From: Strigamia acuminata
Taxonomy: Eukaryota
Direction: 5' to 3'
Length of the DNA: 64,000 nucleotides
Assembly (NCBI GenBank): GCA_949358305.1
Contig: OX442314.1
Location: forward strand, 7,254,001 to 7,318,000
Part shown: piece by piece, positions 42,009-48,000 of the stretch
How the letters are laid out: the number at the start of each line of letters is the position of its first letter
How positions within the stretch are numbered: position 1 is the stretch's first letter
Notes under the pieces: generated by a model
Told to the model about the DNA's origin: nothing
The model's input: the letters and a program-made list of their open reading frames with translations, nothing else
The model's database searches: none
Program-made: the position numbers and the translations under genes

Positions 42009-45000
42009 ATGCAGAATAATTTTTTGGTGGGAAAACTACGTCCGGTAATTTACCGATTGTTAAATGACGATAAAAACAAACTTCGATGCAACTTAATTGG
42101 TTTGGATGATTTCGTAAACAGCAGACGGCACTGGACAAAGCGTCACATCTTTTGGCTGCTTTTATTCTCATTTTGCACATGCGTGCTCACTTATCAGACT
42201 TATGATAGAATAATGCAATACTTAAGTTATCCTATGGCTGTTGATGTAACGAGTAAATCAGAAGATGTCATTCTTCCACAATTGATGATCTGTAGTAGCA
42301 ATACGAAAGAAATGGCGAGACTATGGAATAAAACTTACATTAAACTCAAAGCTCAACCGGATGAATGCTCTGATATGTTGAAAACTCTGATAACAAACCC
42401 AGCCTACAATGTAGACGAACTTTGGAAAGCTGCTAATTTGACGAAAGAAATAGTGAGCATAAAAATAAAAGTAAAAAGATAGAATAAAGCATTTTTTATT
42501 TGATCAATTAAAATGATTTTAACCTTTCATTTCGCACAGGGATATTCTAAATCAAGCAAAACAGTTGTTGTGGCAGAAATTGGATACATTTTGGGAATGT
42601 GCTCAACATTTCAATTTCGTATGTATACTGTATAACCAAAAATGTGTCTATCTAGCACTCTAATTCAATATGTTTTATTGCCACAGCAAAAGCTTCTAGT
42701 GACTCATTTGTTGGACAAGTACTGACGGTAAAAATGGAAAAAAGTTATGATAACATATGCCCTACAGCGCCATATTGGGTAATTTTTAATGAATTAAAAC
42801 TGTGATTTGTATTTATCATCTTCTTTTTGCAATTAGCTTTTCCTTGCATTTCATGATTTTGGAAGACAGCTTGGCATGGGAAGACAATTTATCGGTGGAA
42901 CAAAAAAAGTTTATTTGAATTACAACAAAGTAAGATTTAATCCAAGAATGTACATTTACTAAGGTTCGCTTAATTTTGTTTACAATTTTTAGTTCATATT
43001 TCTGAATTCACCGATAAATGAATGCTCCAGTGAAGATGAATTCAGAGAATGTTATCGAAGTTGTCTATTGAAAAGATTAAAACAGCATTTAACATGCAGG
43101 TAAGCATACTGCACATCAGATGGTATCGTACAATTGTTAGTTTTCATAAATAAATGTTCACACATCACTTTGATAAATAAAAAAACCAGTATAATGTCCA
43201 AATAGTTTTAGATTACACACAAACGCTTCATCACCGACATTCACAAGTGCTATCAATCCCACAATGCAATACAAACTCAATATTGTTACCAAACCCGTCC
43301 CATAATCCAACATAATCTCGAACCCACAATAATTTTACAAACAAACTCTCTAACAACAATCAAAAACATCGCCATCAAAAATCTTTTTTGCTAGATTCCC
43401 CTTCATGAAAATTGATTTGCCACTTTGCAAATGTTCAAAGGACATAAACATGCAATATGATGCTGCAAAACAGCTAATCGAAACCACAGATCCAATTTCT
43501 GTTTGCCAATGTCGACGTTCATGTGAAAAAATAACTGTTACACCATCCACTGAGACAGGCATGGCAGATGATAAAAAAGAATTTTCCGCGTCTTTAGAAA
43601 TAACTAATGATCGAATGAGCGTGTATGAAGAACGTTACACCTACGATGTTATCGCTCTACTGTCAGATTTGCTGCGATCCGGGTTTTTATCTACTTAATT
43701 TCTAATAAATTAAGCAGAAACCGCAGGTGAATGCTTAACAAGACTTATATCGCGGCCGAAACTTGTCTAGGGTTAAGTTTATGGAAATAAAGGCACAATT
43801 TAATATGGTAATAAAAATCACACAAATATTTATTCTTTAAATTACAATATATATTAAAAACGATGGAAATATCACAGAATGCGACAAGTCGCAAGAATAA
43901 ATGAGCGGGAACAATGGAAGGGCTTGCAACGACTGTTGCAAGCTACAAAGCGCTAAAATGGCGCTTAAACAACACACAGTTGTTAGGCGAAGGCGAATTG
44001 TCTTCGTTTGCTGAACTCACGAACGATGGTCGAAGACGATGGTTCTCGTGGGCTCCTTCTACGGCTCGTGCGACGGCTCGGCGGCGGTGGTTGACGGCTG
44101 TAGGCGTCCGGCTCTCGTACGATGGCGGTGGCTGTCGTTCGCGCGGCAGCGACGGCGATGGTTCACGATCGTCGGGAAACTTCTACTTCTCGATAGCTGG
44201 AATTAGCGACGGCTAATTCAAGCTGAATTGCTGGCTTTGTGCGTTTGATACACAAAGATAGCAGGCGAAACTGAGTTACAACGGTCCTCTATCAATACTT
44301 TTCTTTCAGGAGCAAAAGCAGTGATGTTGAGGTTGTTGTTGTATTTTTCAGAGTCCCGATTTGAGCCAAGACGCGAGCCCAGCACGCTTCAATATTGCGC
44401 AGAAAACCTGCGCACTTAGCTCAAATGGGTGCAACTAGTGGTTATTACACCATATTGCACCATAACGGCTAATAACCGTTTTCACCCCGGACAACCTGGG
44501 GTGATATGTGCCTAGAGAGGATTTCTCCCCTCGGTCACATGATCTGACTTGGCGTGTGCCACAGTCAAATTAATTAGAAGATAATTAATTTAATCTTCTA
44601 AGTTGGTGAATATTTTGAGATCACCACACATCCCCCCATTTAAGACGAATCTTACATGGAGAGAAAATGAACGAACCAATTTATGATTCGTCCATGTTCT
44701 GAGTTCGCTCGGGCGTCAACGGGCGCATCATATCCGTGGTGTCGTCCCTCGGGTTGGACCGCTCGTTAACCGTACACAGGTCGCGACCTGCGTTTGGTCC
44801 GGAGACCATTCCAGGGTTGACATGAAGCCAAACCTGGATGATTCTCGCCGAGTTCGCTCGGTTGAAAAATCCTAGCGCCGCAAACTCTATGGGATCCTCT
44901 GGCGCCAATCGTGCTCTCAGGAGTCGATCGTGGAGCACTGATGGTGGGCTTAACACCCGGATGTGGTCCTCGAGCCACATAAACACCTGCCTCGACAACT

Positions 45001-48000
45001 TGTGGTTGTTGCTAAGCAGTGTTCGCGTATCCGGCGTCAAATAGAAGTGCGGATACAGGCGCATCAGGGTCTTGAAAGCCGACTCTTTTTTCAGCGGCTT
45101 GACCTTCGTCTCCGGCTTGGCTGGCGGCGGCGGCGGCGGACGTGAGTCTTCCGTCGTGGCATCGTCAAAATGGCACTGCGGGCCCAAGAAAACCAACGCG
45201 GGTGCGGAGGTTGACGAGGGTGTGACGCCTCGTCCCGGTGCTCGACCCACACCGGGGAGCTGACGGGTTTCGACTACCCGTTGAACTCCGGCTGGAGTTT
45301 GAGAACTTCCGGCGTTCTCTGGCCAAAATGAACATCCAGCGCCCTCTTGGGCCGACTGGAAAACAGCCAGTGACGCAGCTGCTGTGGCGCTTGTAACTGG
45401 AAGCGGTGGTCTTCCGGCTATTCGCGCCGTGGCCTTCGCAAAGGACCACTCGGTTCGCAACCGAACGGCGGCCTCTTCTTCGGTCTCACCGTTTGCTACG
45501 ACTTGCTTTATTAGCTCGGCTAAGATCGTAGGCGGGTCGAGCCTGAGGTGGTACCACAGCTCGACTTTCTTCTCCGACAGGCCCATCGGCGCGGTCCAAA
45601 GGTACGTAATGGCCGCTAACGCCTGTCCTGGCGAAGGAAGAACACCAGGGTACAACACCCTAGTCATCCCCGGAATTAGCTGACGCTGAAAATCCATCAG
45701 GCGGGGATCATCAATGGTCTTGATGTCGGAGAGTTCTAGCCTTTCAGCTAGTCTCTGCCAGTCCTTCTGCGACTCGGCGATCTGGGCGCTTTGGTAGGCG
45801 TCCAGCTTCTTGAGCACTTCCTGCTGCGCTCTAATGGGTTGCTGCTCGTAGCAGGTCCATTGTGGGCCGAACGACTCACTGAAAAATGGCCGGAGTTGCA
45901 GGTTGCTCACTCCAGCCGGCAAGCGGGAAACATAACCATGTTCGGGCAAGCGGCTAGCGTGTCCAGGTACTGGCACGCTACAGTCGGGAGAGATATCACC
46001 GACAACACGTCTCATGGCGTATGGAGTAGCCGGGTTGTCCACTTTGAACGTGGAGGCGGTTCGGCTACTTCGGGCGGACTTAATTGTGGAGTCCGATTCA
46101 AAACTTAACGAAGACGACGAGCCAAACGACTCTGGTGTCCGTCCTCGTCGCGACTGCGGGCGTGATGGCTGCGCGTCAGTCGAATATGGGCGCGATCGCC
46201 TCTGTCGCTCCTCTCGATCGCGACTCGATTCGCGGAACATTGGTCGGACTGGAACCGGCGGAGGGAGTTGCCCCACCCTCAAATCCTCGTCTTGCGGCGG
46301 AGGATTGATGGCCGCTGGGGCCGGAATTTCATCTTCTTGATAAAAAGGGAGAGCGCAACGCGCTTGCTCCTCTGCCTCGTGTTCTCGAGCCAGTTGTCGA
46401 TTTTCGTCGACGCGAAGCTGCACCGCGGCAGCTCTGAGTGCTTTGGACGGGAAAAATCCCGGAAAATCGTTAAAACACCCGGCGAGCGCCAACTGGTGGA
46501 GCTCGGTTTGTGTGACGGGAAGTTGTGGGTTCCCGTCACGAACGGATTTGCGATACCGTTTAACGACTTCGCGTTGTGTCGTTTTGAGGTTCTTCCTCAA
46601 TTGGGTGAGAGCACCGTAATTAATTCCGGTACTCTTTAGCGCTCTTCTGCGCTCGTGACGCTCTCGTGGCGTCACTGGCCACTGGTTGTGCAGCAACTCT
46701 GCTGCAAGCGGTCCTGGGGGGCTCTCGTCGAGCGTCCACTCGATTTCGTCGACACCGTCCACGTGAAGGCGCTCGATGAACCGGCCTCTTGCTCCGAATC
46801 CTTGCAGAGCCGATCTGCTGAAGTCGTGGCGCAGCTTCCACCACGTGTTGTTTGCCGTCTTCAGTCTTCTGATTTTTTCGGGCAACGCCGCTCGAAAAAT
46901 CAGCGGGTGCTGAGTCGGCACGTGATCGGGAAGCGCGAATGGCGTTTCTCGATCCCTCTCGATCTGTATTCGAAGAAAAAATAAATAAATTAGTTTATTT
47001 AAAAATAAACAAATAATTTCTTATTTGAAATATTTTTTAAGCTTAGCGCTTGTGGCTGTGAGTCACTAAGGGATGTTGGTTGTCATGGCAACTCCCTTCG
47101 CACATGCTTGAAGCACGTGACTTTTATAGCCGCCATTTTTATTTTTTAGCGGCTTGTGTTTGAAGTCAGGAAAAGTGAAATTACTCAATTTTTCTGACTT
47201 AAACACTTGGTAAAAATTTATTCTAATAATTTACCCGTTGTTGAAGCGTCAATTGAACGTCTTCATTTGCCCCTTCCATGGGCATTTCTCCGTCCGCCTG
47301 GAGTTGGATCGCTTCCTCGTCCATTCTCTTTCGTTTTCCGGTAATTTCGGAAATTCTTTCGTCTTGAAAGAGAAATAATACATAAATCTTATGTTTTATC
47401 AAATTTTTCATACAGAAAAATTACTTACGATCAGGTTGTCGAACTATTCGGGTCGTAACGTAGGCGATGCGATGCATACACTCTCGAAACTTTTGAAAAA
47501 GTGACTAAGTTCGTTGATTGCAAACACGAACTTGGATTAGAGACGCTTTGTGACGTCACTAATTATAACGTATGATTAACGTTGTCATTCGAGTGGGTAC
47601 TACGAATGACGTCACGAGATTGCTTTCTCGGATCTTTTGGGTAAACCTAAAAGGTGAAAGACAACACTATGTCTTGGCTCGCGGAACGCGAGATCTCAAG
47701 TTGTACTTTGACTTTCGCGAAGTACAATCCAACTTGTTTAGATTGTCATCAGCATCGTCTCCAATGTCAGATGAGTTATATACTTCATTGTTTGAAATTT
47801 TCTCTTTTTCTAAAAACATTTCCTTTTCTAGATTTTCATCAAGAGAAACATTTTCAAGTCGCTGGTTTATTTCATCGACTTCGTTATTTTTGAGTTTCGA
47901 TTTTTTACTCGATTCCGTGTTTTCGACAGGAATTTTGGATAATTTAGCATCATCCAAGGTATTAACAATATTCTTTGTTTTTTGACCCACTTCCTCCCCT

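Follow-up and report, generated by a model that had tools for sequence, protein, structure and literature searches.

How can a retrotransposon keep introns on its own coding strand, when a single copying round should remove any that are located entirely behind pol, outside every other gene? The question is raised by a stretch of 64,000 nucleotides from Strigamia acuminata (contig OX442314.1, positions 7,254,001 to 7,318,000), referred to throughout as the window, whose minus strand houses at 43670–56010 a 12.3-kb long terminal repeat (LTR) retrotransposon with a third gene, here termed ORF3, between pol and the 3' LTR. A young family in which many copies still have such introns offers a natural experiment on the choice of unspliced RNA for packaging. 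A first-pass annotation of the window had described ORF3 as a sense-strand, intron-containing accessory gene with a regulatory or anti-silencing role; the gene proves to be real, non-Env, family-wide, and under purifying selection, and copies of the main family retain its intron-like stretches in their DNA, whereas the anti-silencing role is without direct support.

The reading that we favor, although we hold it tentatively and at somewhat less than an even chance, is that ORF3, a conserved third gene that follows pol and does not encode Env, is translated from a subgenomic mRNA produced by splicing, and that its product would serve, by analogy with systems discussed later, as a nuclear regulator for the export and packaging of unspliced RNA. 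If ORF3 is indeed an exporter or an activator, it would mark a further independent origin, outside retroviruses, of a factor like Rev and CERV or like Tas, and one whose protein family is absent from the libraries that were searched.

A predicted three-exon gene behind pol

The element is an intact, recently inserted Ty3/Gypsy retrotransposon (Metaviridae), and its LTRs, which had been described as apparently identical, agree at 959 of 959 bp. The Pfam domains of pol are protease (PR), reverse transcriptase (RT), ribonuclease H (RH), and integrase (IN), at residues 146–241, 403–556, 619–751, and 948–1117, respectively, and its best solved relative in a search of PDB sequences is the Ty3-G Gag-Pol (E 3e-105). 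The RT has no close relative: it reaches a best identity of 44% over its core, to an unnamed protein, and sits on a long branch when 112 of the 120 matches are placed in a quick tree without named Gypsy clade references.

ORF3 shares the strand of gag-pol, unlike the antisense additional ORFs of the aORF or brtn type. Its three exons (49, 128, and 2283 nt) join in frame into 819 codons and a stop, with GT..AG ends throughout, and all coordinates of the earlier model hold. The ends of intron 1 read GTAAGT..TTTCAAG and those of intron 2 GTAAAT..ATACAG. The stop-free frame spans 779 codons, against a longest of 289 in 1000 shuffles. A simple consensus score ranks the donors 4 and 10 among the 612 GT within the element and the acceptors 2 and 13 among its 858 AG, which puts every splice site of ORF3 within the element's top 2%. 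When the spacer was shuffled, a donor-acceptor chain of this quality turned up 87 times in 5000 global shuffles and 120 times in 5000 block shuffles, a test that flatters the result because its thresholds are the observed values. Intron 1 (66 nt, GC 0.20) resembles the short introns of the host, as represented by gaps of 61–77 nt and GC 0.23–0.31 between exons of genes of the DEG/ENaC family, and in intron 2 a CTAAT that resembles a branch site precedes the acceptor by 26 nt. At this acceptor the GC content climbs from 0.12 to 0.58. Because exon 3 then runs without Met for 241 codons, we strongly infer splicing into 46964, and its use as an acceptor is very probable on the sequence; intron 1 is, to judge by its signals, probably spliced as well.

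Translation could begin at either of two ATG codons, one at 47477 in a weak context and the other at 47324, within exon 2, in a strong context; the latter would yield a protein of 790 aa without KRKR. This basic motif, listed in the first-pass annotation, is present in exon 2, but it lies upstream of 47324 and would be translated only from the weaker start at 47477. Intron 2 itself contains a further ATG (47119–47136), in the same context as that of the gag start, with a frame of 17 codons.

The 5' end of the mRNA could arise in two ways. Two TGACGTCA palindromes are present at 47551–47558 and 47607–47614, together with TTATAATT at 47568, and intron 2 contains AAAATGGCGG at 47139, TATAAAA at 47128, and CACGTG at 47119. 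All the promoter-like words are where they had been placed, although the second TGACGTCA sits downstream of the TATA-like word. The TGACGTCA word occurs 6 times in the window against 0.78 expected, a number that 0 of 100 shuffles reach, and is also found just above the TATA-like word in the LTR of a neighboring retrotransposon, element 2. The order of the motifs, namely cAMP response element (CRE), TATA-like, CRE, and initiator-like (Inr-like), is a misfit to one standard core promoter. The YY1-like word of intron 2 recurs, reversed, in the LTR (55345) and in the leader (54995). An acceptor at 47647, 20 nt past the pol stop, ranks 8 of the 858 AG in the element, and the LTR carries a GTGAGT donor at 55402, downstream of its Inr-like word at 55656; with this acceptor and this donor, a triply spliced mRNA driven by the LTR, a route that the first-pass annotation had overlooked, is as plausible as an internal promoter. 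On the basis of these motifs, we would put the chance of an internal promoter at even, and regard transcription from the LTR via acceptor 47647 as a serious possibility that falls short of even.

The protein encoded by ORF3 is an orphan. The best 19-residue hydropathy in exon 3 is 1.0 and both candidate N-termini are polar, in agreement with the earlier statement that no transmembrane (TM) segment is present, and exon 3 encodes 7 Cys and 1 N-glycosylation word (NxS/T). An Env is ruled out by this hydropathy, by the few Cys and glycan sites, and by the blank Pfam result, and a protein like the sORF2 of other Gypsy elements is ruled out by the hydropathy. Pfam gave 0 families at E up to 1, a near-length protein search gave 0 matches (7994 candidates, from a collection that includes Strigamia proteins), 0 homologs were found among 1.84 billion representative sequences, and PDB sequences gave 0 matches at E up to 10. 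The ESM Atlas held no match for either the whole protein or residues 355–525, and metagenome contigs raised 10 stretches, none of them confirmed. No recognizable enzyme domain, such as GDSL or DEDDy, was found with Pfam and PDB sequences.

AlphaFold, run without an alignment, returned models of low confidence, with a predicted local distance difference test score (pLDDT) of 41.4 for ORF3 and 50.5 for its mid-block, in which three helical blocks (~85–203, 369–515, and 629–729) are separated by linkers rich in Pro, Ser, and Arg. Foldseek found nothing at E 0.001 or better for these low-confidence models, while the best VIA match of the mid-block model (Z 6.7) was a generic helical bundle; several Pol II C-terminal domain (CTD)-interacting domains were matched by the mid-domain model at Z 4.6–6.0, below the noise level of the tool. 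Neither an Env nor a host gene was matched in the sequence and fold searches. A metagenome scan with the RT of the element gave 4 loci at 33–39% identity, none reaching past pol. The GC content at third codon positions (GC3) is 0.61 in ORF3 versus 0.34 in pol and 0.38 in gag, a contrast that makes ORF3 look like a separately acquired module.

Copies of the family and predicted folding of the RNA

Three contig sets of one organism, here X1 to X3, cover the ORF3 region, and we infer that they represent DNA, since the introns are covered, the depth is raised at the LTR, and records extend up to 29–48 kb. In all three sets the summed depth over ORF3 is about that of gag-pol, and one X1 contig with a depth of 5964 covers 47170–47655, that is, the promoter region, exon 1, intron 1, exon 2, and the donor of intron 2, with 1 difference. 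Rare joints recur at a depth of ~84–121 in X1 and 28–38 in X3; these data suggest a family of dozens to about a hundred copies, depth being no copy number. No joint that removes an intron is present among 15 of the 38 joints, which reach down to about the depth of a single locus.

The differences between copies were taken from the 40 best-supported of 684, with 8 LTR rows dropped. Within this selection, ORF3 has 13 differences, of which 8 are synonymous, 5 are not, and none makes a stop; compared with a neutral expectation of 25–29%, this synonymous share has a p of 0.005–0.016. The corresponding counts are 9 of 14 for pol and 3 of 4 for gag. One listed difference falls at position −3 of an acceptor and keeps YAG, and a synonymous one falls at codon 137, among the open codons ahead of the first Met of exon 3. 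As for indels, all 12 that were listed (12 of 61) lie outside the ORFs. ORF3 is under purifying selection like that of pol, and the comparison with other copies, proposed in the first-pass annotation, supports the gene: in these contigs its intron-like stretches are retained and its differences are mostly synonymous.

Some copies depart from this pattern in other ways. An X1 joint with a depth of 252 runs back 1682 nt (window 46956–48637), which suggests copies with a tandem duplication of the end of pol, the spacer, and both introns. Both X1 and X2 contain a skip of 108 nt, or 36 codons, at 46080–46187, in a Ser/Arg-rich linker of ORF3, and the frame is kept if this is a clean deletion. At window 47428, two X3 contigs match up to the donor of intron 1 and then diverge (one of 784 loose ends); they possibly belong to a subfamily with another first exon, or the coincidence may be due to chance.

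Intron 2 is predicted to fold into a chain of hairpins (z −7.1). The idea that this folding is special to the intron was rejected after a scan of the element in 82 windows, each of 150 nt, which gave a mean z of −3.0 and in which intron 2 falls within the top 4. The mean is −0.48, −0.03, and −0.81 in host stretches and −0.66 in element 2. In shuffles of synonymous codons, the values are −3.1 for ORF3, −5.4 for pol, and −3.9 for gag, whereas the gag of element 2 has −1.6 and ENaC exons of the host have −0.8 and +0.8. That ORF3 shares in this predicted element-wide folding suggests that it has long resided in the element. Pairing between both TGACGTCA words, also considered, is absent from the minimum-energy fold, and Rfam gave one chance match only. 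Genome-scale ordered RNA structure exists in some RNA viruses, and the predicted folding of the element resembles it; no study of such element-wide folding in LTR retrotransposons was found in the literature searched, and its predicted presence here and not in the gag-only element 2 is a separate lead.

Precedents, mechanism, and rival explanations

Complex retroviruses have exporters of the Rev/Rex type, foamy viruses have an internal promoter, and the introns of retroviruses overlap coding genes. The element shares with them the logic of a spliced early regulator and, possibly, an internal promoter, but it has no env and its pol is Ty3-like. By analogy, the closest known case is CERV of Cer1, a Gypsy/Ty3 element of C. 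elegans. CERV is a nuclear protein, encoded by an mRNA with 5 exons and required for the export of genomic RNA; it has a KRKK motif and three folded domains (H, M, and G) with linkers, and no homologs outside nematodes (PMC10309623). Like CERV, ORF3 is a lineage-restricted, non-Env accessory protein, encoded on the sense strand by an mRNA predicted to have several exons, with a basic tetrapeptide (KRKR in place of KRKK) and, in its low-confidence models, three folded blocks joined by linkers. In contrast, exons 1–3 of CERV share the gag frame, whereas the whole of ORF3 is situated behind pol, with introns free of any overlap with another gene; CERV has 517 aa and ORF3 790–819 aa; and export is shown for CERV but only presumed for ORF3. 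No homology to CERV emerged from the near-length search and the 1.84 billion representatives (0 matches, no direct pairwise comparison having been made), and the fold searches with the ORF3 models (pLDDT 41 and 50.5) gave no significant match.

Other systems share single parts of the arrangement. In Tor3b/4b of Oikopleura, the internal promoter for Env is located within pol or in the spacer that follows, and its RNA gave no evidence of splicing (PMC4402516); this parallels a third gene behind pol with, here, a candidate internal promoter, but the Tor gene encodes a membrane Env, while ORF3 has no TM segment and two predicted introns. The LTR elements of bdelloid rotifers have sense, non-Env ORF3s behind pol, of GDSL, DEDDy, coiled-coil, and TM types (PMC5408684; also PMC5718144), but the ORF3 studied here has no enzyme domain, and "intron" occurs 0 times in the main text of PMC5408684. 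The barley Copia element BARE1 keeps a small sense intron and packages an unspliced pool only, and splicing between ORFs is mentioned for Ogre (both PMC3735527); the BARE1 intron differs in being inside the gag-pol coding sequence, where it governs Gag output, and no accessory gene is involved. Retention of a sense intron therefore has precedent, because BARE1 packages an unspliced pool and CERV allows Cer1 RNA to be exported unspliced; the unusual point in the present element is the lack of any overlap between the introns and another gene. Accessory ORFs are also found in Gypsy elements of arthropods that have no Env, namely those of the MDG1 group, whose sORF1 and sORF2 (~70–110 aa) are upstream of gag and unspliced, sORF1 being nuclear (bioRxiv 10.1101/2025.03.14.642691). 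In Strigamia itself, LTR elements are methylated and a Copia family has captured a methyl-CpG-binding domain (MBD) (PMC6673714). A sense-strand, intron-containing, non-Env ORF3 behind pol was not encountered in the literature searched, which covered subscription journals only to a small extent; each part has a precedent, and the combination and the protein were not found in these searches.

The regulator that we tentatively favor would work as follows. The small spliced mRNA would leave the nucleus by the normal export route, so that ORF3 is made early; the protein, with its Arg/Ser-rich and basic stretches and its small helical domains, would bind the folded full-length RNA and favor the export of unspliced molecules; and the packaged pool would be unspliced, with splice signals partly buried in hairpins, so that introns persist. 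RNA without both introns still holds the primer-binding site (PBS), gag, pol, and the polypurine tract (PPT) and would be expected to replicate. That the introns are nonetheless retained in the main family implies either that the packaged pool is unspliced or that intron-less copies fail. The wider proposition, that a myriapod Gypsy lineage independently evolved a programme in the style of complex retroviruses, comprising a host-like, multi-exon orphan gene behind pol with its own promoter and with purely non-coding introns that survive in dozens of copies since product and folding restrict packaging to unspliced RNA, seems to us doubtful as a whole.

Several points weigh against a regulator of export. 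The splicing, the start site, and the protein of ORF3 are predictions from the sequence, and KRKR is lost if translation begins at 47324. In Pfam, the near-length search, and the 1.84 billion representatives, ORF3 resembles neither CERV nor a family of RNA-binding proteins, its function being argued from analogy and composition, and the exons of CERV overlap gag while those of ORF3 do not. Element 2, with gag alone, persists in the absence of a gene of this kind, as do many Gypsy elements, and the folding of intron 2 is unremarkable within the element. The table of differences consists of selected rows, three of the ORF3 rows being adjacent, and provides no unbiased ratio of nonsynonymous to synonymous rates; and rare intron-less copies may exist, given that 15 of 38 joints were seen and that contigs lose rare variants.

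ORF3 might instead be expressed from an internal promoter and act on chromatin or transcription, as a Tas-like activator of the LTR or as an anti-silencing factor against methylation and PIWI-interacting RNAs, the introns being kept for their promoter or enhancer words. We consider this rather unlikely, even though the two upstream TGACGTCA words, their counterpart in the LTR of element 2, and the internal promoter after pol in Tor3b/4b (PMC4402516) would fit it, as would the methylation of LTR elements in Strigamia (PMC6673714), the absence of CpG depletion (observed/expected 1.53 in the spacer, 1.13 in the element), and the below-noise matches of the model to Pol II CTD-interacting domains. 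Neither Pfam nor the 1.84 billion representatives revealed a DNA-binding or chromatin domain, the ORF3-less element 2 is likewise not CpG-depleted (1.29), the order of the motifs departs from one standard core promoter, and acceptor 47647 offers a route that needs no promoter. A spliced ORF3 could also serve a cytoplasmic or cell-to-cell stage, such as particle trafficking or suppression of small-RNA silencing. The position behind pol, with an acceptor right past the pol stop, is the slot of env, long low-complexity linkers would suit a scaffold, and the non-Env ORF3s of rotifer elements are of varied function (PMC5408684); nevertheless, the protein lacks both a TM segment and a hydrophobic N-terminus, in which it differs from Env and from sORF2 (bioRxiv 10.1101/2025.03.14.642691), and intron retention would be left unexplained, which makes this proposal improbable.

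That ORF3 is cargo, a host or foreign gene captured with its own introns and promoter and unrelated to the RNA cycle of the element, agrees with its deviating GC3 and with the likeness of intron 1 to host short introns, but we find it very improbable: no homolog turned up among the 1.84 billion representatives or in the near-length search of a collection with Strigamia proteins, purifying selection on ORF3 is like that on pol, and the shared folding implies long residence. We give still less credence, indeed hardly any, to the notion that the AT-rich stretches are not introns at all, with ORF3 translated from unspliced RNA via Met codon 242 or a non-standard start and the spacer acting as a structured cis-element. 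Splicing is predicted here from sequence signals, intron 2 is predicted to fold strongly, about 2% of shuffles match the splice chain, and the first acceptor is AAG; against these stand the 241 open, GC-rich codons ahead of the first Met, which begin exactly at the acceptor and contain the synonymous difference at codon 137, and the branch-like word at −26.

Layout of the element and its neighborhood

The features of the element are collected in Table 1. Within the overlap of gag and pol, an A-AAA-AAC word suggests a −1 frameshift.

Table 1. Features of the ORF3-bearing element, in window coordinates
Feature	Position	Strand	Remarks
5' LTR	55052..56010	-	959 bp, TG...CA; Inr-like TCAGTT 55656, GTGAGT donor 55402, AATAAA 55216
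PBS	55032..55049	-	starts 2 nt past 5' LTR; match, as we assume, to tRNA-Pro; the LTR of element 2 is followed by the same PBS
gag	51914..54937	-	1007 aa; CCHC knuckle close to end
pol	47667..51935	-	intact; order PR-RT-RH-IN
Pyrimidine tract and AG (acceptor 47647)	47647..47666	-	directly past pol stop; rank 8/858 AG; predicted
Candidate internal promoter or non-coding exon	47478..47646	-	TGACGTCA 47614 and 47558, TATAAT 47567, Inr-like TTAGTC 47508
Predicted exon 1, coding part	47429..47477	-	49 nt; ATG context weak
Predicted intron 1	47363..47428	-	66 nt, GC 0.20
Predicted exon 2	47235..47362	-	128 nt; KRKR, then strong-context ATG 47324
Predicted intron 2	46964..47234	-	271 nt; hairpin chain (predicted); YY1-like, TATA-like, and E-box words; CTAAT 26 nt before acceptor
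ORF3 main exon (exon 3)	44681..46963	-	2283 nt, 760 codons, GC 0.58; first Met = codon 242
PPT and 2-nt spacer	44629..44642	-	G-rich, directly before 3' LTR
3' LTR	43670..44628	-	identical to 5' LTR; inside DEG/ENaC-family exon

The element is inserted into an exon of a DEG/ENaC paralog, the protein of which has as its sole strong match one of the centipede Strigamia maritima, at 54% identity (2 matches among 2540 candidates). The target duplication, read from two empty paralogous sites and from the LTR ends of element 2, is 4 bp with one mismatch (AATG/AATC). In this duplication (56011–56014 and 43666–43669) the mismatch adjoins the 5' LTR, and the two bases there are those of the spacer between the PPT and the 3' LTR; they could be a retained unprocessed cDNA end or a polishing error.

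Element 2 (23958–29284, minus strand) is a young LTR element with 938-bp LTRs that have 2 mismatches and with a GTGT target duplication. It shares the PBS of the ORF3-bearing element and has neither pol nor ORF3. Its gag (1012 aa), which is ~27% like that of the larger element over ~255 aa, has an A-run before the ATG. Element 2 is possibly non-autonomous and mobilized by a relative.

From 15900 to 64000, paralogs of the pickpocket-like DEG/ENaC family are clustered on the plus strand. One exon in this cluster encodes a TM2-like segment that passes directly into a TM1-like one, which suggests that a single gene may encode several channel subunits in tandem; the Strigamia DEG/ENaC match is 814 aa long and likewise matches some exons twice. 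Inside ENaC introns, 16189–17192 and 19657–21912 have long perfect inverted arms (157 + 246 nt and 465 nt, respectively) and are likely young DNA transposons, the former with TGACGTCA in both arms. A frame of 212 codons at 7818–8456 on the plus strand reads like what we take, from a motif pattern, to be a fragment of a Tc1/mariner transposase.

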